Virus record (IMG/VR): IMGVR_UViG_3300021579_000001
Coordinates: 2,404 to 66,403 of that record
DNA length: 64,000 nt
Origin: a virus
Direction: 5' to 3' (one strand)
Shown: positions 11,124 to 22,602 of the stretch, piece by piece
Numbering within the stretch: the stretch's first letter is position 1
Layout of the letters: every line of letters starts with the position of its first letter
Program-made: the position numbers and the translations under genes
The notes under the pieces: model-generated
Databases searched by the model: none
What the model saw: only the letters and a program-made list of their open reading frames with translations
Told to the model about the DNA's origin: nothing

Positions 11124-13169
11124 TTATTTGTTGTTTTCGCTAATCAACTTGATTTCACAAGCGTCTGTGGTGCAGTAAGCTTCGCCTACAGCATCCAGCG
11201 ACATTCCCTGGTAAACTCCTTCGAAGTCAATCGGGAACAACTGGTTGCCATACTCAGTGTACTCTTCCTCAGTAATCTGAGTGTAAGGCATCTGAGGGTA
11301 AACGTGGTTTCCCATTGGCAAGAAGCTGACAGTCTTCAACTGGCCATCGTACATGTGCAAAACCGTACCAACAGCTTCTGATTCTTTCTCTGCGTCAAAC
11401 GTAACCGTTACAGACACAGAGTTGTCTGACCAGTAACGCTGTGCAGTTGCAGCAAGCGACATCTTCTCGTAGATAGATACTTCTTTCTCCGAACGGCTAG
11501 CGCCACTCTTAATCGGGAAGAATACTACAGACGTTGTGTCTGGAGATTCTGACGCTGGCTCGATACGATAGTTAGCCATCTTAAACAGTTCAAGCATAGG
11601 TTCGTTGTTCGCAAAACGAATAGCCCTTAGGAAGTACTTGCCACCAGCAGTCCAGTGTACGCCAGGGCTTTCACCAGCAAGGATACTTACAGTACCTGAA
11701 GGCTTCACAGTAGTCATCTTGATAGACTCACGCACACCAAGCCACTCAGAGTAAGTAACGTCGTACGTCTTTACCGTAGCGTACCCTTCATTCATCCACT
11801 CACGTAGCACTGGTAGCCCTTGGTTATCTGCAAAGTTAGCGACACCTGAAACAGATGTTCCAATACGACGGTTACGCTGCATGATTGCGTTGGTCTCTTC
11901 CCAGTGAGTAGGAAGCAAGGTAACAGTCTTAGCGTAGAGATACGCAAACTTGAGAGTGCGCTTGAAGTCTTCCAAAGACTCGTGACGGTTCAAGTAAGTT
12001 TCTACAAGAGTGCACATCTCAAAGCTTTCTAGGCTTTGTTCTGCACAAGGGTTGTACCCTACAACACGCCAATCCTTATTATTAGGGGCGTCAATCAAGC
12101 GACCATACTGGCGCGAAACATCCATCCAAATAACACCTGGCTCACCGTTGCGGACGATGCCATCAACGATAGGTGAGAAGTCCGTTCCAACACAAACTTC
12201 CACCGAGTTGTTTGACATCCATGCCCAACCTGGGGCTTCAGGGTCATAGCTATTACGCTCAGGAAACCTTTCAGCATTTTTCAAGTTCAAGAAATCTTGG
12301 TCGTCAATACGGCCAATCAAAAGCTCCGCTGAACGACGCACGTTGCCTGATACAACACAAACACCAATGAGGTTGCCAATGTCAGCAATGTCTTTGCGAG
12401 TAAGCTTGTCTCCCTTACGTTTGCGGAACACGTTGCGGATTGCACCATGCAGTTTGAACAATGGGTCTGGACCAGAGGCTGTACCACCAAAGGTGGCAAT
12501 AGGAGAACCGTATGGACGAATCTGGTCGTAGTTAAACTCCCAAATAGGTTGTTCAGGTTTTAGGTAGCTGTTAATCAACGCAACTGTTGACTCCATCCAA
12601 CCTTCACGAGTGTCAGGGATTACATACTCTTGGAATCCTTTAGGCTCATAAATCTCAAAACCTTTATCTGCGCCCTTGTCATCAAAACCTACGCCTACAC
12701 CCAACATCGATGCTTCCATTAGGAATGCAAACGGCTTACCTGGGTTCTGCTGGGTCATTGCCTTAGTTGAAACAAACGCACAGTTCTGTAGTGCTGCTGA
12801 GTTTTTCTGAATGTTCACAATTGGGGTACCCATTACCCATAGACCGCGACCTGGTGGAGTCCACTTTAGATTGAACAAACGGTCAAATGCTTCTTTGGCA
12901 CTTGCTGCTGCCTTTGCGTCACTCCATGGCAAACGGTTCTGTTTTGCATGGTCCTTCTGTAGTGAATACATACCGTTGATTACACGTTCGCATACTTCTG
13001 CCCAAGTTTCCTTGGTGCCGTTATCTTTCTTACGACTGTATGTACGGAGGAATGTAATCTCGCCAACCGAGTTTCCTGCTACGTCTGCATAACCGAACGG
13101 TGGCTTCTTATCCCTGTATCCTGCGACAAACTCTGCCGCTAGTTGAAACGAAAACATCGTCATAACCAC
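11124..13169 (-). CDS. nrdJ: Class II (adenosylcobalamin-dependent) ribonucleotide reductase
   Basis: PPGRGLW, NC, GNVRRSA, NPCAEQ-x-L...CTL-x-E, RRIG, TVKPSGTVS, C-terminal CxxxxC. Confidence 0.95.
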   Translation of the reverse strand: MVMTMFSFQLAAEFVAGYRDKKPPFGYADVAGNSVGEITFLRTYSRKKDNGTKETWAEVCERVINGMYSLQKDHAKQNRLPWSDAKAAASAKEAFDRLFNLKWTPPGRGLWVMGTPIVNIQKNSAALQNCAFVSTKAMTQQNPGKPFAFLMEASMLGVGVGFDDKGADKGFEIYEPKGFQEYVIPDTREGWMESTVALINSYLKPEQPIWEFNYDQIRPYGSPIATFGGTASGPDPLFKLHGAIRNVFRKRKGDKLTRKDIADIGNLIGVCVVSGNVRRSAELLIGRIDDQDFLNLKNAERFPERNSYDPEAPGWAWMSNNSVEVCVGTDFSPIVDGIVRNGEPGVIWMDVSRQYGRLIDAPNNKDWRVVGYNPCAEQSLESFEMCTLVETYLNRHESLEDFKRTLKFAYLYAKTVTLLPTHWEETNAIMQRNRRIGTSVSGVANFADNQGLPVLREWMNEGYATVKTYDVTYSEWLGVRESIKMTTVKPSGTVSILAGESPGVHWTAGGKYFLRAIRFANNEPMLELFKMANYRIEPASESPDTTSVVFFPIKSGASRSEKEVSIYEKMSLAATAQRYWSDNSVSVTVTFDAEKESEAVGTVLHMYDGQLKTVSFLPMGNHVYPQMPYTQITEEEYTEYGNQLFPIDFEGVYQGMSLDAVGEAYCTTDACEIKLISENNK

Positions 13170-13336: not shown

Positions 13337-14830
13337 CTATCTTTCCAACTTATCTTGGATAATGCTGGTGGTAGCATCGGCATCTATGACCCTTTTATTC
13401 TCTTTTGCGGCATCTACTCGGTCACCAAAAATGGCTGCCAAAACTCCCTGGCTAGCGTCCCGCTGTGCCGTGATTTGAATGAACTCTTTTTGCTCATCCA
13501 ACTCCTTCAAACTTTTCAACATCTTCAAGTAACGGTCCATCTCTTGAGACACGTTTGGGTCTGCGTATCCACCATTCAATTCTTCTGAAAACCGCATGAA
13601 TGCTACTCTCTGGGCCTGCATCTCTAGCAACGCAATGTTCATTGCCTTCAACTGGTCAGGCGTTTTTACCTCTATCGGCAGGCTAAACGCACAGGTAGTA
13701 TCTGCCTTAAATGCTGGACAGTTTGCTGCTACAAAACACGTGTTACATTGTCTCAAACTTGCCTGTTGGCTGTTTACGACAGGCACATCTTTCAACACAT
13801 CTCTGCCGTTTTCGTGCTCTACTACCTGCTTCATCTCGTACCCAAAAACAGGCATTGATGTCATCTCTAATGGGTCTCTTTGGGCCACTTCTACGCGTTC
13901 AACTTTCCGCATTGCTGACCCACTGTTATTAGAACCATCTACCCCTAAATCCATCAAACCCGTATATAGGGTATCATCACTGTTATCAGCTACTAGTGGC
14001 TTCCATGGGTGGTTATTTTCGATTGGTGCTTTGTCATTCATTGTTTTCTCTAACTGTAAATACGACCATACAGCAACTTTTGTTGCCTCTAAGGTGTCAT
14101 CATCAATAAACTTCTGGAAATCTAACCCTGATTTTTCTACGATGTTTTTGTATCGAATACGGGCTTGTGCCTTCATTTTTTTGGGGTATCGAACGAGTTT
14201 TGACCCATCCCAGATAATCGTTTCGCCTCGACGCATTGGGGATATCCAGCTCAACGTCGAGGCTGTAGTAAAAGGTATCTGACGTAGGTTATCTGGTTTG
14301 GCTACCGCTAGTCCGTGCAACACCGTCTTGTGGATGCGCACCATGTTACGGGCAATGCCTGCCAATGACTTTACTGACTCAATCGCATCGCCTGGAATAG
14401 CGATGTTCTGGTGCAAAAACCCCCACTGCTGGAGTACTGGAATGCCGTACGACTCATGCCATACCACAATCATTTTCTGGTCATTCTGGAACGGTTCTCG
14501 TTCTTTTACTACCCATTCTTTGCCCAAAACTTGGCTGTCAAACTCTACCCAGCCCTCGATACGTTCGTAGTTTAGAGCTACAAACTCTTGGTAATCTGCC
14601 GCAAACTCTTCCAGTTCTTCTCGGCTTAGGTTCGCTGCGTCTGCCTGTACCGCACCAGAATCCAACCACACCTTCATGTCAGGCAAAAAATGCTCACTAA
14701 TCAAATACGGTTTGTTCTTTGGCATACCCCGCTTACGCAATCCCCAATAGTTGAGCATTACGTTACTTGCCCCTGATTTTTCTAGCAGTATTCGGTTACT
14801 AGGAATCTCGGTGCCACTAAATACAATCAT
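13337..14830 (-). CDS. TGT/DpdA-like TIM-barrel protein with altered catalytic motif, fused to C-terminal Cys4 and helical domain
   Basis: WLDSGA, EFD, VVWH, HGL, P-F-x-x-x-[S]-x-x-SW-x4-RG pattern of phage DpdA-like proteins; CNTC-x5-CP-x7-C. Confidence 0.7.
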   Translation of the reverse strand: MIVFSGTEIPSNRILLEKSGASNVMLNYWGLRKRGMPKNKPYLISEHFLPDMKVWLDSGAVQADAANLSREELEEFAADYQEFVALNYERIEGWVEFDSQVLGKEWVVKEREPFQNDQKMIVVWHESYGIPVLQQWGFLHQNIAIPGDAIESVKSLAGIARNMVRIHKTVLHGLAVAKPDNLRQIPFTTASTLSWISPMRRGETIIWDGSKLVRYPKKMKAQARIRYKNIVEKSGLDFQKFIDDDTLEATKVAVWSYLQLEKTMNDKAPIENNHPWKPLVADNSDDTLYTGLMDLGVDGSNNSGSAMRKVERVEVAQRDPLEMTSMPVFGYEMKQVVEHENGRDVLKDVPVVNSQQASLRQCNTCFVAANCPAFKADTTCAFSLPIEVKTPDQLKAMNIALLEMQAQRVAFMRFSEELNGGYADPNVSQEMDRYLKMLKSLKELDEQKEFIQITAQRDASQGVLAAIFGDRVDAAKENKRVIDADATTSIIQDKLER

Positions 14831-15312
14831 TCGAAATTCAACGATTCTGTTCTAGTCAAACGAGCATCCTCTGTTCGCAGGATGTTCTGCTTGTGAATGG
14901 CCTGCTCGATGTCATCCCATGACCGCACACGCTTTGGCGCATCTGGGCGGAACTCTGGACGAGTGTAGTTGGGTACGCCAAACATCACTGATGGGATGCC
15001 CATGTCAAACGCAAACGCCCACATTTTAGGGTTATTAGTAATGAACAAATCCACTGGCCCACGTGCTCTAGCTACCTTAATCTGGCGCTCGGTTAGATTT
15101 TCCCCCTCCAAATGATACGAGGAATCGATGACTCTATCAAAATCAACAATCTTGTTCATGTTCAACCATTGGTTAGTTTCTGCCTCCGTCATGGGAGAAA
15201 TAAACGTCAATCGGTTATACACACTTAGGGTTCCCACCATCAAAATACCTGTGGGAATGGGCTCATCTGACGGCCCTTTTAGCACGCCTTGGATGTCAAT
15301 TAACAACTGCAT
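14827..15312 (-). CDS. HAD-superfamily-like protein with degenerate motifs
   Basis: LLIDIQGVL (motif I DxD to DxQ), LFITNN (motif IV). Confidence 0.55.
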   Translation of the reverse strand: MQLLIDIQGVLKGPSDEPIPTGILMVGTLSVYNRLTFISPMTEAETNQWLNMNKIVDFDRVIDSSYHLEGENLTERQIKVARARGPVDLFITNNPKMWAFAFDMGIPSVMFGVPNYTRPEFRPDAPKRVRSWDDIEQAIHKQNILRTEDARLTRTESLNFE

Positions 15313-15315
15313 TTA

Positions 15316-15411
15316 CTAATCCTCGTAACAATCACAACGACACTTGTCGTCTATACAAATATTTTGGTACAACTCATGCCCACATAAACGGCACGTGTCT
15401 AGTAACGACAT
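15316..15411 (-). CDS. 31-aa Cys-rich micropeptide (not in ORF track)
   Basis: MSLLDTCRLCGHELYQNICIDDKCRCDCYED; TAATG overlap with NTase stop. Confidence 0.6.
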   Translation of the reverse strand: MSLLDTCRLCGHELYQNICIDDKCRCDCYED

Positions 15412-16310
15412 TACTCGCCTGCCCTGTACAACGCTGCTCTGCGCACCATTACATCGGCACTAGGTAGGTCTACCCCGTAAAGTGTTCTGGTGTCTGTGCT
15501 TACCCTAGATTTTGCTGCATGGCTAATCTCATGTAACATCTCCAACGTGCCGTTGCGCTTAGCTGCTTGCCATCGGTAGTTGTAAAAGTCGTCGTAGCCT
15601 TGGCCCTGTGGCCCAAATGCTTCTGAACGGTTATCATGGATTTGCTGGTGCAGGGCGTTAGCTTGCTGGTATGTTGCCAACAAGGTTGCCTCTGCGTTTT
15701 TTCTTTGAGGTCCAGGGTGCAAACCTTCTAGGTCTTGTATCGCTTTGGTGGCTCTGGTGTACGCAGTTTGAGTGGTTGCGTAATCTGACGATGCCACAGC
15801 TTCCCAATCAGGGTTAACTGGAGGGGTTCTATTAGGGTCTGGAGTGACAGTCCACTCATCGTACTTTAGGTCGTACGCAGCATAAGGTTTGATACTGGTG
15901 ATGTCTGTGGCTCTTGGGTTGACATAAAAGGTCAACTCGTAACCATTCCAGTTCTCTGTAGTTGGCTGCAACCCACTACGGAACTCCTCGTTCAGTTGTT
16001 GGCTAATTTCTTTGTCCGTCAAACCTCTGTACGCAGGGTTTGCTTGCCTAAACTGCACAAAATCTACACCGACCAAGCAATCCAAATCTCCTGGTTGGCG
16101 TGCTGCGCTCCACTGATACGACACCCCTGACCCTGCTAACCATGGGTGAGACCACAGTTCTGCATGGCGGTACTTTTTTGCGAAAAAATCGCTCAACAAA
16201 TGGTTGATGCCTTGGCGAACCCACGAACGCAGGGCTCTGCCTTGGAATAACTTAGGGTCTAACTCTTGTGAGGGCTCGCTGAAATACGAGGTAGGTAGGT
16301 AACTAGTCAT
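15411..16310 (-). CDS. Pol-beta-superfamily nucleotidyltransferase
   Basis: LAGSGVSYQW...GDLDCLV, third acidic residue in YELTFYV, helical C-terminal lobe. Confidence 0.8.
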   Translation of the reverse strand: MTSYLPTSYFSEPSQELDPKLFQGRALRSWVRQGINHLLSDFFAKKYRHAELWSHPWLAGSGVSYQWSAARQPGDLDCLVGVDFVQFRQANPAYRGLTDKEISQQLNEEFRSGLQPTTENWNGYELTFYVNPRATDITSIKPYAAYDLKYDEWTVTPDPNRTPPVNPDWEAVASSDYATTQTAYTRATKAIQDLEGLHPGPQRKNAEATLLATYQQANALHQQIHDNRSEAFGPQGQGYDDFYNYRWQAAKRNGTLEMLHEISHAAKSRVSTDTRTLYGVDLPSADVMVRRAALYRAGE

Positions 16311-16320
16311 ACCACCTAGT

Positions 16321-16617
16321 TTATTCTACGGGGGTAACGCTTTCGGGGTCAAACCCGCGCTTCTTCAAGGCATCACGAACTTTGTCCTGAGGGGTGGCAG
16401 GCTGTGCTGGTGCCAGAACCTGAACCAATCCTTGGATAACTTTGCTAGCAATCATGTCGCGTTCAAAATCATCTACAATCTGGCGTGAGGTCAGGTAAAT
16501 GTCAGTGATGGTAGCTTCGTGCTCTGCTTCAGGCAAAGTCTCAGGAACATCGGTGTAACTGGTTACGGTGCCATCGTTGTGCGAAACAATCAGATAATAA
16601 GTTTTTACTTCCGACAT
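16321..16617 (-). CDS. Hypothetical protein
   Basis: TAATG coupling in operon. Confidence 0.75.
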   Translation of the reverse strand: MSEVKTYYLIVSHNDGTVTSYTDVPETLPEAEHEATITDIYLTSRQIVDDFERDMIASKVIQGLVQVLAPAQPATPQDKVRDALKKRGFDPESVTPVE

Positions 16618-17186
16618 TAGCGGTAATCTCCTCGCATTGCGCGGTGCTTAGTAGTCATTACTGAATGCATTGGGCAAAAGTTACACACGTAAATCTTTGG
16701 TCCGTCTGCATGCTCAGGTTTAGGTAGGTTTAGGTCTGCACGTTCTTTAGCTGTGTTAGGGAGCAACCGCTTCTTAGGGCTGAGATAATCATCGCAGTGG
16801 TCATCAGGCTGCAAGTGGTACTTCCAACAGCTCATCGCATCTTCTGAGAACTGCATCTTAGTTTCGTAAAACGCTTTCTCAGGGTCAAGTTCGTCTAGAC
16901 CTGTGGAGCCTCCCTTAGCTAACTGCTCAAGGATGGCTTTACGCTGCTCGTAGTTGCCCCATGCACTTACGGGTACCTTGAACAACTTTCCTACGTGGGG
17001 TTCTCCTGAAGGGAACACGTGCTTCTCAATAGTGATTGCCAATAGGTAGTCTAGGTCTGATGGACCATCGTAATCAGGTAACTCTTCCCAGGTTTGGCAC
17101 ACTAGGCAACGGAGCAACCTAATCAGTGGGCCTGAGTGCTCTTTACTGCCGATTAACGGCTTACCGTAATCATCAATTGCTGGCAT
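16617..17186 (-). CDS. Hypothetical Zn-binding protein
   Basis: CLVC...H...H; C-x3-H...C; CNFC. Confidence 0.75.
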   Translation of the reverse strand: MPAIDDYGKPLIGSKEHSGPLIRLLRCLVCQTWEELPDYDGPSDLDYLLAITIEKHVFPSGEPHVGKLFKVPVSAWGNYEQRKAILEQLAKGGSTGLDELDPEKAFYETKMQFSEDAMSCWKYHLQPDDHCDDYLSPKKRLLPNTAKERADLNLPKPEHADGPKIYVCNFCPMHSVMTTKHRAMRGDYR

Positions 17187-17365: not shown

Positions 17366-17389
17366 AAACCCTTCCCGTAGGAAGGGTTT
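17366..17389 (-). terminator. Intrinsic terminator with UACG tetraloop
   Basis: AAACCCTTCC-TACG-GGAAGGGTTT-TT on minus strand. Confidence 0.8.
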
Positions 17390-17633: not shown

Positions 17634-18395
17634 TTAGTTAATTGAATCTACGTACTTTTGAACCGTGGACTGGTCGCTACCTTCACCATAATCATGCACA
17701 AAACTTGGCAATGCTTGGTTCAAGTTAGTTGAGCGGACTAGGGTTCGGGCTGCATCCTTATTGTGGTTAGCTGCAACGCCCAGCAATGCCGCTGCGCCTG
17801 AGCCGTCACCCTTACGGTGTGCTTTCCATGCGTCTAGTGTGGCTGACTGGGCGCTGTTTAGGAACTTGCTGATTTTAGCGTGAACATCTGGCGTGATTCC
17901 CTGAAGTTCTAGGTGGCTATTTGCAATAGAACGAATGTTATCCGTAGCAGTACCATTGAAATGGTTGTAATCGTGGTGCGGCTCATTGGTGTTAGCAAGC
18001 GTTGCCTGAGGTGTTGGGGTACCGTACTGTGCGTCTACCTTAGATTGCAGGGTGGCAATCTTCTTCTTAAAAGCTTTAGCTTCCGCAAGGTCAGCACTAG
18101 TAGGTTGGCGAGAAGAGTTGATTGGTGGGTGCTCCCAGAAAGAGGAATCAACTTTGTTCTGCGCTTTTTTTCTAGCTTTATAGGCTGTGTCAGTGACTCT
18201 TAGCGCAGCTTTTTGTTCTGCAGTCTTTACTCGAGTCTTTGGGGCAGGTGCTGGGGCAGCTTTTACTGCACCTTTCTTAGCCGCAGGTTTAGCTGCGGTT
18301 GCCTTAGCAGCAGGCTTTGCAGGAGCTTTCTTCTCTACCACTACTTTAGTGTTTTGCTTTGCCGCGGCTAGCGCAGCCTCTACAGTGAATGCCAT
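17634..18395 (-). CDS. Hypothetical protein with histone-H1-like P/A/K N-terminus and helical C-terminal domain
   Basis: KKAPAKPAAKATAAKPAAKK. Confidence 0.75.
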   Translation of the reverse strand: MAFTVEAALAAAKQNTKVVVEKKAPAKPAAKATAAKPAAKKGAVKAAPAPAPKTRVKTAEQKAALRVTDTAYKARKKAQNKVDSSFWEHPPINSSRQPTSADLAEAKAFKKKIATLQSKVDAQYGTPTPQATLANTNEPHHDYNHFNGTATDNIRSIANSHLELQGITPDVHAKISKFLNSAQSATLDAWKAHRKGDGSGAAALLGVAANHNKDAARTLVRSTNLNQALPSFVHDYGEGSDQSTVQKYVDSIN

Positions 18396-18399
18396 TTAC

Positions 18400-20691
18400 T
18401 TATCCTTTTGGAAATGTTGCCTTTAGTTCTTCAAAGTTGTTAGGAATAGCTACGCGCTGTCCTTTTAGGTACTTCTCAGGATTCTTTTTAGCTTGGCTGT
18501 TATTCCATGCTTGGTTAGCTGCAGCAGCTTTCTCAGAAGTTTCCTGAGTGATGAGTCGGTGTGAGTATGCCCAGGTCTTGTGAGCTTTAGTGCCTTTTCT
18601 AGGCTCAGCACCAAGGGCGGCTCTACGAGTCTGCCCTTCTGCCAAAGCCGCATCAACTGCGGTTCTAACGCCAGGGTTTGCTAGGTGGAAGTGAGTGTGA
18701 GCTGCTGCCTGAATAGCTGCAGTGCGCTCTTCCTCAGGAGTTAGGCTACCAGTTGGGATGTTAGATGGAGTGCTGGCTGGGTTGTGAGTGGTGTAACGTT
18801 TAGTGCCAGCAATTTCAGTAGGTAAAGTAGAAATTCTACCTTCATCGGTAGTAACCGTCTGACCACTTGGGCTACGTTCAACGTCCTCTGGGTGAATGAG
18901 GTTGTACGCGCTAGAGGCTAGCCCAGCTCCAAACTCTGAAGTTCTGGTAGCTTTAGGGGCCACAGGAGCAAACCCACCACGCTCACGGATTTGGCTTTCA
19001 AGAACAGCTTTAGCAGCAGGGTTGCTGTCATAGTCAATAGGCTTCTTCGAATCAGCATCATACCCAAACTTAGACCGCTGGATTTCCGCAGCCTGCTCAA
19101 GCGCATTCCCCCTTCTACCTGCCTTGCTGGCGTTGATTCCAATTTGCGCGTGAAGCTCTTGGCGGGCTTTAGCAGCAGTTTCTTCTGCAGAAAGAGCTGG
19201 AACTCCTTGAGTAGAACCAGATGAGGCACCTTGTTGGGCTGCTCGTTCGCGTTGAACTGACTCGGAACGAGCAGTTTGCTCCGCTATCGCTGCACGGATT
19301 CTCTCACTCTGCGCAGCTTGGAACCCTGGACGGGCAGCTTCACGAGCAGCGTTTGCTTCATCTGCCGTTTTCTGCTGTTTAGCGGTCAAAGGCTTAGGGT
19401 TAATTCTCTCTTGTACCAATGGGTGAGTAATAGGCAACCCTGGAGTAGAAGTATCCGCCTGCACCCTCAATGGGTTCTCGCTAACAATCGACGCCATCTT
19501 AGGGAGGTTTGATGAACGATTGCCTCGCTTGAAAGCCTGTCGAGTTATGTCATAGGCAGAAATAGCCTCCATACCTTTAGCAAGGTCCAGTTTATTAGGA
19601 ACCCCACCGTTAAGGTCTGAGTCAACTTGTCCAATGATTCCTGAGCCTGGCTTACCTTTACTAGAGGCTTTGCCCACAATGTTAGAAATTAAGTCAGCTC
19701 CATTAGCTGCCTTAAAGTCTGGGTGGTGGTCTTCCAAGGTATTGGCTGCGGACTTAATGCTTTCAGAAGCTTGGCGCAAGTGGGTAACTAGGCCTGGAGA
19801 GCTTGTGTCGTACTTGCTATCTGCTGGCGCACCTCTTCTAGTGCTTCTCAAGTTTGATGGGTCCATAGCTGGTCCATCGTTAAATCTTCCCTCTAGGTAA
19901 GCGATACCCGCATTACCGATAGAGTTATTGGCTCTGCGTAGGTGACCGCGCAAAGTGGCGTATTCTGCGCTGTTTCCTTTAGGGTCCAACTCATTTAGGT
20001 GGTTTTCCAAAAGGTCGTGCAAAGCTCCGAGTGAGGCCATAGGGTCTGAGCTTAAGCGCTTGTGGTTAGGACCAGTGTACATCTCTGTTACAGGAGCGAG
20101 GCCTGGTCTATCGGCAACTTTTTTGCCAAGCCAGCTCTGTTCACTTACGTTCCAGTGACCCTGACTGTTGTCAACAGGAGCAGCATCTTCAGCCTTTTTC
20201 TTTTTTATGTAGCCTTGAGCTCTAGAGCCACCATAGTTTTGTGCACTTTTAGCACTTTCGTAGTGAGCCTGCTCTTCTTCAGGGGTCGAAGCATACTCGG
20301 CAAATGTTCCTGCTCTGCGGTGGTCTTCAATCTCGTCATCAGACATGCCTCTGAACTGTTTAAAAAACTTTGCTTTAGCGTTCTTAGTAGTTTGTTCGTT
20401 AGTACTCTTGGTAAACTTTTTTCCACCTAAAGGAACTTGAACACCGCTACCAAAACTAGCCCCAGCACCTTGTAGAGTCTTAACAACTGACCTTACAGTT
20501 GTGTCCTTTACTCGTGAAACTGTGCCATCGGCATTGCGCTTGGCAGTGACTGGCTTTGAGCTTTGGCCCAGAATAGCCGTAGTTGCTTCTACTTTTTTAG
20601 ATTTTGGGCGTGAACGCTTTAGCCCGTCAATGATGGCCTTGTCTTCTTTAGGGTTTACATCGCCTTCGCGGTTGAAATCTTCAGCAGCCAT
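18400..20691 (-). CDS. Large low-complexity protein (possible internal virion/ejection protein)
   Basis: 763-aa A/S/G/K-rich ORF with no Cys, coupled to neighbours. Confidence 0.7.
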   Translation of the reverse strand: MAAEDFNREGDVNPKEDKAIIDGLKRSRPKSKKVEATTAILGQSSKPVTAKRNADGTVSRVKDTTVRSVVKTLQGAGASFGSGVQVPLGGKKFTKSTNEQTTKNAKAKFFKQFRGMSDDEIEDHRRAGTFAEYASTPEEEQAHYESAKSAQNYGGSRAQGYIKKKKAEDAAPVDNSQGHWNVSEQSWLGKKVADRPGLAPVTEMYTGPNHKRLSSDPMASLGALHDLLENHLNELDPKGNSAEYATLRGHLRRANNSIGNAGIAYLEGRFNDGPAMDPSNLRSTRRGAPADSKYDTSSPGLVTHLRQASESIKSAANTLEDHHPDFKAANGADLISNIVGKASSKGKPGSGIIGQVDSDLNGGVPNKLDLAKGMEAISAYDITRQAFKRGNRSSNLPKMASIVSENPLRVQADTSTPGLPITHPLVQERINPKPLTAKQQKTADEANAAREAARPGFQAAQSERIRAAIAEQTARSESVQRERAAQQGASSGSTQGVPALSAEETAAKARQELHAQIGINASKAGRRGNALEQAAEIQRSKFGYDADSKKPIDYDSNPAAKAVLESQIRERGGFAPVAPKATRTSEFGAGLASSAYNLIHPEDVERSPSGQTVTTDEGRISTLPTEIAGTKRYTTHNPASTPSNIPTGSLTPEEERTAAIQAAAHTHFHLANPGVRTAVDAALAEGQTRRAALGAEPRKGTKAHKTWAYSHRLITQETSEKAAAANQAWNNSQAKKNPEKYLKGQRVAIPNNFEELKATFPKG

Positions 20692-20909
20692 TAGACCATT
20701 TTTCCTTTAACTCTTTTAGCTCTACGGGAATCCCCACATGGAGGGCACAGACCTAGGGTGCTGTACATAAATTCTGTAGGGTTCATGATGATGCCACACT
20801 GTGGGCACATCCTACTGCCTCTATACATAGTACCATTTGTATTGGCTACATTTTTGGCAATCTTAAACGCCTGTAACTCTAGGGTCTCTGCCCCATCACC
20901 ATCAAACAT
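20691..20909 (-). CDS. Zn-ribbon protein
   Basis: CPQC...CPPC; start moved to ATG 20909 overlapping upstream stop. Confidence 0.6.
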   Translation of the reverse strand: MFDGDGAETLELQAFKIAKNVANTNGTMYRGSRMCPQCGIIMNPTEFMYSTLGLCPPCGDSRRAKRVKGKMV

Positions 20910-22602
20910 TTCTACCCTTAGGTTTACGAGTACGTTTAGGCTTAGGCTTAGCTTCCTCAGCGTTGCGCTCACGAGCACTGGGGGCAGAAACTTGAGCGTT
21001 GTACTCGTCGTAAGCCGCTTTTTGCGCGTCAGTCATACCAGGCTTAGTGCGGCCTAGTCGTTCCATAACCTGAGCGCGACGCTCTTCACGAGTGCCCGAA
21101 ATGGCGGGCTTTACGTCTGCAGCTGAGTTTGAAGGCACCGCTGTAGCTCGGCCTCTCTCAGTTTCAACAGGAATTCCCACGCGAACTAGGGTACCGTTTA
21201 CTCGTCTATACGCAGGTTTGCCATCAGCGGTTACCTGCTCTTCAAAAGGAATTTTGACAGGCTTGTTACTGCTCACAGATACAGGCTCCGAGGCCATTTC
21301 ACCGCTATTAAATCTACTTCTAGAAGGCTTACCAGAGGTTTCCCCACTGCTCCACCCGCCACGCATAGCGTCTTCATTGATGGTTCGCCCTGTCTGGGCT
21401 TCCTTCATGTACTTTCTAATCTTTAGATAGTCTTGGTGTTGCTTAGATGCTTCGGGGTGCGCTGCTAGCCAGTCTTTATCCGCGGTGTCACTGAGCGCGT
21501 ATTGACGCAAAGCTGCAGGCGAACCAGCTCGAGCACGAGGGTTACCAATCCAGACATGCCCAGGTTTTGACAACCCTCCTTGAGGGTGGTCTTCTTGAAC
21601 ACTTCCATAGTCGTTCTTGACTACGCCCATGTCACCTAGGTTATCGGCAACCTGAGTGATTCCCTGCTTTGAAACTCCAGAAGGTAGAACTCCTAGTTTT
21701 CCTAGAGGGGTTCGTGAAAGTCTAGTGAGCTCTCGGGTTAGGTGAGACGCAGCACGACGAATGTGGCTAGCTGCTAGGTCTGTGTTTGAGTTTGCGTTAG
21801 CTTTTTTAGCTGCAGAAAGATAGCTGTCTGCTTCTACAAGGTCATTACCAGAAACGTCAGGTCTGCCACCCGATGTACGCCCATTGTTGGTTAGCTCTAG
21901 AGCATCCACAAGGTTTTTCACATGGGCAGCATGAGGCTTGCCAATAACTGCGCCAAGAGTTCTTGCTTGGGTGACGTGGTGCGCAATTTCTCTATTAGCA
22001 ATGCCAACTCTGTCTGAGATGTGCTGTCTAATGGCAGCGTGGGCAGCTGTTAGCGCAGCAATAGCTTCAGTAGTACCTGTCTGCTTAAATGATGCAGGCT
22101 CTCCAGAACCCTCTACTCCTGCTCTTGCTACAGAAATTTTATCAGAGATTAGTTGCTTCTGTTCCGCTGCAAGGTGCTTGTCACTAGGCCCAGCAGATTC
22201 TGCTGCGTTTCCGATAACTACGTCTTCTTTTACTGCGGCTCTTCTGTTTCGGTAGCCTGCTACGGCAGGAATCGCAGCATCTCCAGAGGTTCTGCGACTT
22301 GGTGAAGAAGGCGTTTCACCACTAATGGTTAGCCTAGGGTTGCTACCCGCAATAGACAGCCCCTCTAAGTGGGTGTTCTGTTGACGTGGAGTTAGAGAGG
22401 CGAACTCGTCAGCAGTAATGTATGGGGTACCGATACGCTGGGTTACCTGAGGGTAAATCTTTTGCATGTGAGCAATTTGGTCACCTCTGGAAAGGCCACC
22501 AAACTCTTCTTGAGTAATTTTTGGGTCACCAATACGTGAGGCATCTACTGCACCTGTGTGTTTGCTAACAGTGCCCTTAAAGACGTCTGAATTGCCTGCC
22601 AT
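20902..22602 (-). CDS. Large low-complexity protein (possible internal virion protein)
   Basis: 566-aa A/G/S-rich ORF with no Cys, basic C-terminus. Confidence 0.7.
   Translation of the reverse strand: MAGNSDVFKGTVSKHTGAVDASRIGDPKITQEEFGGLSRGDQIAHMQKIYPQVTQRIGTPYITADEFASLTPRQQNTHLEGLSIAGSNPRLTISGETPSSPSRRTSGDAAIPAVAGYRNRRAAVKEDVVIGNAAESAGPSDKHLAAEQKQLISDKISVARAGVEGSGEPASFKQTGTTEAIAALTAAHAAIRQHISDRVGIANREIAHHVTQARTLGAVIGKPHAAHVKNLVDALELTNNGRTSGGRPDVSGNDLVEADSYLSAAKKANANSNTDLAASHIRRAASHLTRELTRLSRTPLGKLGVLPSGVSKQGITQVADNLGDMGVVKNDYGSVQEDHPQGGLSKPGHVWIGNPRARAGSPAALRQYALSDTADKDWLAAHPEASKQHQDYLKIRKYMKEAQTGRTINEDAMRGGWSSGETSGKPSRSRFNSGEMASEPVSVSSNKPVKIPFEEQVTADGKPAYRRVNGTLVRVGIPVETERGRATAVPSNSAADVKPAISGTREERRAQVMERLGRTKPGMTDAQKAAYDEYNAQVSAPSARERNAEEAKPKPKRTRKPKGRNV

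Follow-up and report, generated by a model that had tools for sequence, protein, structure and literature searches.

The 64,000-nucleotide stretch of phage DNA analysed here (the window; bases 2404-66403 of the complete 91,322-bp IMG/VR record IMGVR_UViG_3300021579_000001, which has direct terminal repeats) contains a DpdA-like gene, P0001, whose product is a descendant of the phage DpdA1 lineage of DNA-guanine transglycosylases and carries a serine, Ser191, at the position of the aspartate nucleophile of these enzymes. Loss of this aspartate is a trait of a clade, not a local mutation. The comparisons described below firmly support that the clade lost the covalent nucleophile and the linked preQ0 genes and gained a different conserved gene company. 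The explanation that we favour, tentatively, is that P0001 is a DpdA-derived DNA binder with a guanine pocket, which performs no base exchange and acts with the products of neighbouring genes.

P0001 has a TGT-type barrel and descends from phage DpdA1

P0001 matches PHROG 887 ('queuine tRNA-ribosyltransferase', a family name that is an annotation only, the function in it being untested) with an E-value of 1.4e-59; residues 1-475 align with profile positions 11-479 of 509, so that the C-terminal domain is covered. In a family-profile search of the 91-kb genome it was the only member of the family to be found, a second gene resembling tRNA-guanine transglycosylase (TGT) being absent. Searches of Pfam and NCBIfam returned no match for P0001, and Pfam, NCBIfam and PADLOC gave nothing for it or for the neighbouring proteins. 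The silence of Pfam on P0001 means little, because its TGT model also misses the bona fide DpdA of Escherichia phage CAjan. The PDB, searched by sequence and by profile, contained no match for P0001, the family profile, CAjan DpdA, or the profiles of the nucleotidyltransferase (NTase) and HAD-like neighbours.

An AlphaFold2 (AF2) model of P0001 was built on 125 relatives. Its pLDDT is ~97 for residues 1-267, where eight strands alternate with helices. Foldseek matched this model to Z. mobilis TGT with an E-value of 4e-6 and a probability of 1.00, while VIA-align gave a Z-score of 17.0 for the same enzyme (270 residues aligned, root-mean-square deviation 3.9 Å) and of 16.7 for P. horikoshii ArcTGT. 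Alignment of the family profile with CAjan DpdA by hhalign had a probability of 97.6% and an E-value of 4e-12. In addition, the barrel of gp021 of Bacillus phage BCD7, a relative to which we return below, matches dozens of Queuovirinae DpdAs directly in tblastn. The fold matches to TGT and ArcTGT, the alignment to CAjan DpdA and the link through the BCD7 barrel together place P0001 among the descendants of DpdA1.

P0001 resembles DpdA1 (Escherichia phage CAjan gp35 and the proteins of phage 9g and Pseudomonas phage Iggy) in its barrel and in the positions of D-S-G, of the guanine-binding Asp and of the His. It shares with DpdA1 a short architecture without the PUA domain or the long C-terminal parts of tRNA TGTs, and a location among DNA metabolism genes. 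Unlike DpdA1, it has Ser for the nucleophile D206 and ~230 extra residues made up of a linker and a Cys4/helical domain. Of the two, CAjan DpdA is the one with a demonstrated activity, the placing of preQ0 in DNA.

The guanine pocket is retained and the nucleophile is missing

Equivalence of active site residues was established from profile alignment and strand topology, not from three-dimensional superposition. In CAjan DpdA, D63 is the base that deprotonates the incoming 7-deazaguanine and D206 is the nucleophile, while the pocket is formed by S64, F67, D105, H132, G153/G154 and F189 (PMC7544227); we confirmed this published numbering on the CAjan protein sequence. Profile-profile alignment maps D63 to D57 of P0001, S64 to S58, F67 to V61, D105 to D98, H132 to H125, G153/G154 to P146/G147, F189 to L174 and D206 to S191. 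The equivalents in Z. mobilis TGT (Zm) and S. Montevideo DpdA (Sm) are Zm D102 and Sm D95 for the general acid/base, Zm D156 and Sm D130 for the guanine-binding Asp, and Zm D280 and Sm D256 for the nucleophile. Judged by this alignment, the residues that would hold guanine are all present in P0001, and only the nucleophile is lost.

The peptide I-P-F-T-T-A-S-T-L-S-W is encoded at 14278-14246 on the minus strand, with Ser191 specified by tcg at 14260-14258. S191 lies at the C-terminal end of strand beta8 (residues 189-192) and is surrounded by A190, T192 and L193. In TGTs and in S. Montevideo DpdA, the nucleophile occupies this same topological position; in the latter enzyme it is also the residue at which the large insertion Ins8 begins (PMC10164549). 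There is no compensating acidic residue among A190, S191, T192 and L193, and no other conserved carboxylate on the beta8 strand in 125 representatives of the family. Neither was an acidic residue found that is specific to members lacking the Asp; E8 occurs in the Asp-bearing BCD7 protein as well. Asp188 was considered as a shifted nucleophile and rejected, being present in only 36 of the 125 representatives and sitting at the start of the strand. In S. Montevideo DpdA, a change of either catalytic Asp to Ala abolishes guanine exchange, and all three aspartates were reported to be invariant in TGTs and DpdAs (PMC10164549).

A preliminary description of this DNA, made by eye, had proposed a TGT/DpdA-like barrel and a structural comparison with Zymomonas TGT as a check. 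That comparison found a TGT-type barrel (Foldseek and VIA-align, above), in agreement with the hhalign result for CAjan DpdA. The by-eye alignment of P-F-T-T-A-S-T-L-S-W was reproduced by profile-profile alignment to CAjan DpdA, as were its two corollaries, namely Ser in place of the nucleophile Asp (codon 14258-14260, aligned with CAjan D206) and retention of the DSG Asp and of the EFD guanine-binding Asp (D57 and D98, aligned with CAjan D63 and D105). Fold and residues stand, but the loss of the Asp is not peculiar to this gene: it characterises a large family, PHROG 887. Retention of the DSG Asp likewise holds for P0001 and fails family-wide, with Asp in only 62% of members and one subclade combining Tyr57 with an aliphatic residue 191.

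Loss of the nucleophile is a trait of a clade

An exhaustive search yielded 874 representatives (50% identity clusters) at E <= 1e-3, most of them 470-510 aa long and matching from end to end. At the position of residue 191, the 125 full-length representatives have Ser (55), Thr (17), Ala (17) or Gly (13), and the rest are hydrophobic. Among 151 + 120 sequences, Asp was seen there only in BCD7 and in one pair, P0017/P0152. Position 57, that of the general base, is Asp in only 78 of the 125 representatives (62%), and Tyr, His or Glu is tolerated.

A barrel tree was built with MAFFT and FastTree from 48 sampled family members and rooted on CAjan DpdA and a Rosebush-like DpdA; the mycobacteriophage Rosebush-like genome that we examined carries Que genes. 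All 48 sampled members fall into one clade on a long branch, with modest SH-like support (0.61), and BCD7 and Bacteroides phage BS162P1 branch outside it. P0017 and P0152 are nested deep within this Asp-less clade (SH-like support of 0.998 for their group), and their Asp would for this reason most simply be a secondary change. They have the usual NTase and HAD-like neighbours, and no Que gene occurs in the 7.4 kb visible around them.

We also compared P0001 with 32 relatives of this phage at 61-78% identity. D57, D98 and S191 are each kept in 31 of the 32 and T192 in all 32, and no other parts of the protein are as well conserved as segments 1-40 and 181-220. The strength of conservation at these residues and in the active-site segments means that the pocket in the clade of this phage is clearly under purifying selection. 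A derived subclade (support 0.96; for example P0043, P0099, P0218 and P0254) has mostly Tyr or Glu at position 57; at position 191 it mostly has non-nucleophilic residues, chiefly the aliphatic Val, Ile or Leu. This pattern looks like coordinated remodelling of the pocket, not random decay.

Inteins with LAGLIDADG and splicing domains were found at at least three sites in the family, in members P0071, P0031, P0085 and P0081. They are inserted before C365 (P0071), before C380 (P0031) and before T204 of a G-E-T motif next to the active-site strand (P0085), which indicates that these motifs, and the gene itself, are conserved and important. P0006 and P0013 have an N-terminal HNH endonuclease domain that either forms a fusion with the DpdA-like protein or was called together with it. 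The HNH fusions and the inteins suggest frequent traffic of homing elements at this locus.

Table 1. Features of P0001 and of its neighbours (window coordinates)
Feature	Coordinates	Strand	Description
DpdA-like gene P0001	13337..14830	(-)	497 aa; whole open reading frame including stop
TGT/DpdA-type (beta/alpha)8 barrel, residues 1-267	14030..14830	(-)	Short Ins8-like hairpin plus helices; AF2, Foldseek, VIA-align, hhalign
Asp57 of L-D-S-G	14660..14662	(-)	Equivalent of CAjan D63, general acid/base; 31/32 close relatives, 78/125 family-wide
Asp98 of E-F-D	14537..14539	(-)	Equivalent of CAjan D105, guanine-binding Asp; Asp in 101/125 representatives
His125 of W-H	14456..14458	(-)	Equivalent of CAjan pocket H132; His in 74/125 representatives
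Ser191, end of beta8	14258..14260	(-)	Position of CAjan nucleophile D206; Ser in 31/32, Thr in 1/32 close relatives
Linker, residues 268-319	13874..14029	(-)	pLDDT 40-44 over 272-312; lowest conservation among close relatives
C-terminal domain, residues 320-497	13340..13873	(-)	Long beta-hairpin, Cys4 knot, helical hairpin, two more helices
C362-x2-C365-x5-C371(P372)-x8-C380	13691..13747	(-)	Presumed metal site; 124/124/124/123 of 125 representatives
HAD-like protein	14827..15312	(-)	161 aa; 31% identity to BRock gp38; 'hydrolase' in GiJojo annotation
Pol-beta-type NTase	15411..16310	(-)	299 aa; 36% identity to BRock gp39
Small acidic protein	16321..16617	(-)	98 aa; kept in most close relatives only
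Cys-rich protein	16617..17186	(-)	189 aa; C-x2-C near residues 27-30 and 168-171, further Cys/His

The preQ0 genes are replaced by a different conserved block

No QueC, PTPS/QueD, GTP cyclohydrolase I (FolE) or YhhQ was detected in the complete record in searches run with positive controls; QueE was not searched for. The lack of FolE, QueD and QueC is a further difference from DpdA1 systems. The Asp-bearing relatives have such genes: BCD7 gp021 is flanked by FolE, QueC, QueE and QueD, and the barrel gene of BS162P1 directly follows QueC. In the genome of Streptomyces phage BRock, whose homologue lacks the Asp, there is no QueC. Thus far, Asp-bearing kin occur with Que genes and Asp-less ones without them.

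Instead, P0001 is the last gene of a conserved block that encodes, in order, proteins of 70 aa, 189 aa (Cys-rich), 98 aa, 299 aa (NTase) and 161 aa (HAD-like), followed by the DpdA-like protein (Table 1). The start codon of P0001 overlaps the stop codon of the HAD-like gene as ATGA. The block was found in ~30 IMG/VR relatives and can be recognised, at 25-40% identity, in L044, a distant metagenomic phage, as well as in the Streptomyces phages BRock and GiJojo, its neighbours being kept across phages whose proteins are just 33-40% identical to those of this phage. The HAD-like and Cys-rich genes are present in every context examined, with the HAD-like gene upstream of the DpdA-like one; homologues of the Cys-rich protein were seen in BRock (gp42), L044, L049 and 30 IMG/VR relatives. 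The NTase is missing in L004, the closest relative, and in L049. Near the BCD7 and BS162P1 genes, no NTase, HAD-like or Cys-rich gene was detectable.

The NTase has invariant G60-S61, D75-x-D77 and E125, and PF01909 is found in its Atlas neighbours. An invariant N-terminal peptide, S-Y-F-S-x-P-S-x-x-L-D-P-x-L-F, precedes the catalytic G-S...D-x-D core and may be a docking element. In the HAD-like protein, motif I varies among orthologues (DxD, ExD, DxQ, VxE), which means that its own nucleophile is not conserved; judged by these motifs, the protein could be another pseudoenzyme of the block. Its motif IV position reads T-N-N/D-P, and a C-terminal R-P-E-F-R-P-D...W is invariant. A complex prediction for NTase, HAD-like protein and P0001 scored 0.00 and was not used as evidence.

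The block lies in a region of DNA and nucleotide metabolism, next to ribonucleotide reductase (RNR) and near polymerase and helicases, in a genome whose window also encodes a tail sheath and baseplate. The RNR, directly downstream of the DpdA-like gene (window 11124-13169, minus strand), is of class II (B12-dependent type). Around the family members of L048 and L049, the neighbours include a dCMP deaminase and a canonical NT5C nucleotidase. Two other assignments were dropped: a tRNA-related role, as the window has no tRNA genes, and a structural or morphogenesis cassette, as the block sits at the end of the replication module, with which the GiJojo annotation concurs. Just upstream in the window, three large open reading frames (253, 763 and 566 aa; window 17634-22602, minus strand) have no PHROG, Pfam or NCBIfam match and are absent at the same place in ~30 relatives, indicating a variable insert in a conserved block. 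A strong terminator-like hairpin (10-bp stem and T-run; 17366-17389, minus strand) stands just downstream of the 70-aa gene and may separate it from the run of Cys-rich, NTase, HAD-like and DpdA-like genes. There is a promoter-like site at 16352-16323.

The Cys4/helical domain is shared with catalytic relatives

When the C-terminal domain was modelled alone, AF2 gave a pLDDT of 87, rising to ~95 over the Cys motif. In this model, a long beta-hairpin (~329-354) is followed by the Cys4 knot, after which come a helical hairpin (391-447) and two additional helices. The most invariant polar residues of the whole protein lie in this domain, namely the four Cys, P372, Q405, R408, E416, E430 and R433. 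The Zn motif that ordinary TGTs have after the barrel, C-x-C-x2-C...H, is absent from P0001, which has a different Cys4 motif ~100 residues past the barrel. We treat it, from the motif, as a putative metal site. In its spacing, C-x2-C-x5-C-P is reminiscent of the Fe-S motifs of proteins that process DNA, and Zn is equally possible. Two of the four Zn ligands are reportedly missing in phage DpdAs (PMC5699537).

The domain has no Pfam family. Its best Foldseek hit in the PDB had an E-value of 0.2, and VIA-wide gave Z-scores of at most 8.7, confined to the helical hairpin, with many coiled coils and the T4-type small terminase among the matches. Shape and feature searches of the ESM-Atlas recovered only its own family and a feature match of 0.76 to the T5 small terminase, below the useful threshold. 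The small-terminase reading was rejected, as the domain also accompanies catalytic DpdAs in preQ0 clusters, either as a fusion or encoded alongside. A search for short proteins consisting of this domain alone returned mostly gene fragments on short contigs.

Two relatives clarify its history. BCD7 gp021 and the products of BS162P1 genes 87/88 share with P0001 both the barrel subfamily and the Cys4/helical domain, but differ from it in keeping the nucleophile Asp (G-D-S-T-T-W and V-D-S-V-T-W, respectively), adjoining preQ0 genes, branching outside the Asp-less clade and lacking the NTase, HAD-like and Cys-rich neighbours. In BCD7, an insert of ~350 aa separates barrel and C-terminal domain. In BS162P1 (L038:4851-6483), the barrel (275 aa) and the Cys4/helical domain (251 aa) are encoded by adjacent genes downstream of QueC, a natural split form. 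Since the domain is common to catalytic members and is a separate gene in BS162P1, sequence comparison indicates that it is an accessory of this DpdA branch and not a consequence of Asp loss. The preliminary description had correctly recognised the C-x2-C-x5-C-x8-C motif (C362, C365, C371, C380) and a domain foreign to ordinary TGTs, for which no Pfam, PDB or ESM-Atlas match beyond helical hairpins was obtained; the domain is not tied to the loss of the Asp, since Asp-bearing BCD7 and BS162P1 have it too. The function that the description suggested, a reader of guanine or modified guanine or else new chemistry with a metal cluster, is compatible with these findings.

Cultured relatives in Streptomyces phages

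BRock gp36 and its kin (GiJojo gp181 and the proteins of Alone3, LuckySocke and pSt2308) belong to the same full-length PHROG 887 family at 33% identity. As in P0001, the nucleophile position of BRock gp36 is Ser. BRock also shares the neighbours gp39 (NTase), gp38 (HAD-like) and gp42. Its arrangement differs from that of this phage in one extra gene between the HAD-like and DpdA-like genes and in interspersed lysis genes, and the two phages differ in host and virion type. BRock was listed as a DpdA-only phage by Hutinet et al. in 2019 (Supplementary Data 1, PMC6884629), who noted that more study was needed on whether such singleton DpdAs had functionally diverged (PMC6884629). In the published literature, we found no paper that describes the loss of the nucleophile, nor one on the C-terminal domain, the inteins or the NTase/HAD-like block.

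Possible functions of P0001

We propose a DNA-binding role because P0001 keeps the pocket, has a conserved basic surface and helix (R214, K220, R224 and R226; 125 representatives) and descends from a DNA enzyme. P0001 would still bind DNA and take guanine or a guanine-like base into the pocket, while base exchange would be impossible without the nucleophile Asp. It may serve as the targeting or recognition component of a block with the Cys-rich, HAD-like and usually NTase proteins. Its C-terminal domain, a legacy of catalytic ancestors, would contribute an element that is stabilised by metal and mediates nucleic-acid binding or oligomerisation. DNA as the ligand, base flipping, the lack of catalysis, metal binding and cooperation with neighbours are the parts of this proposal that we infer. 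It is in line with the view that 'DpdA-only' phages have possibly diverged in function and with the lack of 7-deazaguanine in the DNA of phage Orion (PMC6884629). Several observations weigh against it. Strict conservation of D57, S58, D98 and S191 in the clade would be expected of an enzyme no less than of a binder. With D57 at 62% and a subclade combining Tyr57 with an aliphatic residue 191, a guanine pocket is not a universal feature of the family, and the lack of the NTase in L004 and L049 means that it is not an obligate partner. 7-Deazaguanines may come from the host, and the active site was compared by alignment, not by superposition of coordinates.

Conservation of the pocket would also suit a hydrolytic DNA N-glycosylase, in which water activated by D57 would cleave the bond to guanine or to a modified guanine (e.g. 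a host-installed 7-deazaguanine) and leave an abasic site. The general acid/base is kept and strongly conserved in the clade, the mostly small residue 191 (S, T, A, G) leaves room for water or an exogenous nucleophile, and the gene lies by RNR and near polymerase and helicases. We nevertheless regard this activity as unlikely, as D57 is not family-wide, a large subclade being hydrophobic at both 57 and 191; the block shows no partner of the apurinic/apyrimidinic endonuclease, lyase or ligase kind; and unrestrained cleavage at guanine would harm the DNA of the phage itself, in which no protecting modification pathway is present. It is less probable again that P0001 still exchanges bases as its annotation as DpdA or queuine tRNA-ribosyltransferase implies, inserting a host-made 7-deazaguanine or other base by means of another carboxylate, a Ser/Thr or a dissociative mechanism. 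Every pocket residue but the nucleophile is there, use of host preQ0 by DpdA-only phages was suggested in 2019, and phage 7-11 has trace dADG (PMC6884629). However, the nucleophile Asp is reported as invariant and its mutation abolishes exchange (PMC10164549), no substitute acidic residue is conserved near beta8, Tyr, His or Glu is tolerated at the general-base position in the family, and Que genes accompany the Asp-bearing kin and not the Asp-less ones. A decaying DpdA remnant without function, which the loss of the catalytic residue and of the pathway genes might suggest, is scarcely credible: the conservation data contradict it, with an intact reading frame, a family numbering in the hundreds, many invariant polar residues, active-site strands strongly conserved in the 32 close relatives and inteins maintained in conserved motifs.

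TGT-fold proteins without transglycosylation have precedents. QTRT2 (QTRTD1), the non-catalytic subunit of eukaryotic TGT, is a conserved and functional TGT-fold paralogue. It forms a heterodimer with the catalytic QTRT1, whereas this phage has a single TGT-like gene, a partner from the host being possible. In Cap10 of the type IV cyclic oligonucleotide-based antiphage signaling system (CBASS), a TGT-fold protein is likewise paired with an NTase, and its pocket holds a guanine-type base and does not serve tRNA modification. Cap10 forms a 2:2 complex with the NTase and holds the 7-deazaguanine-modified N-terminus of this CD-NTase (bioRxiv 10.1101/2025.04.06.647259). By analogy, the barrel of P0001 might have a role away from DNA, binding a free, nucleotide-linked or protein-linked guanine-type ligand and regulating or scaffolding the NTase. 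The invariant N-terminal peptide of the NTase would fit such a role, as would the degenerate nucleophile motif of the HAD-like neighbour, which suggests binding proteins arranged around one active enzyme. Yet Cap10 is a bacterial defence protein that keeps its nucleophile (D248), needs the QueC-like Cap9, which has no counterpart here, and binds a Gly-rich NTase N-terminus; the NTase of this phage begins with M-T-S-Y-L-P-T-S-Y-F, not with the CBASS M(G/S)G(G/S)GG. The PADLOC models (library of 2023) gave no hit to the four proteins at E <= 0.1, the NTase is absent from some relatives, and the conserved basic helix and the ancestry point to nucleic acid. On balance, we consider a Cap10-like role improbable. 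It is very improbable that the DpdA-like protein, NTase and HAD-like protein form a new pathway of DNA-base modification or replacement that needs no preQ0. In such a pathway, nucleotidyl activation of a DNA sugar or base by the NTase would take over the role of the lost covalent Asp, and the barrel would position an incoming base and deprotonate it via D57, or hold a flipped guanine.

Implications for DpdA-only phages

When a phage gene is annotated as DpdA or queuine tRNA-ribosyltransferase, 7-deazaguanine modification of the phage DNA is predicted from it and, in turn, resistance to restriction and Cas9. In 2019, some 76 DpdA-only phages remained without an explanation (PMC6884629). We find that one large DpdA-only lineage, with hundreds of clusters and including cultured Streptomyces phages, is without the catalytic nucleophile. 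Because the nucleophile is missing and the preQ0 genes have been exchanged for another gene set, the DpdA annotations of this lineage are probably wrong as functional predictions. The unclassified Cys4/helical domain, for its part, may be the means by which certain phage DpdAs contact DNA with no DpdB to assist them. The lineage provides a natural case of a DNA-modifying enzyme that has probably taken on a different role, and with BRock, GiJojo and their relatives in culture, this hypothesis is testable now.

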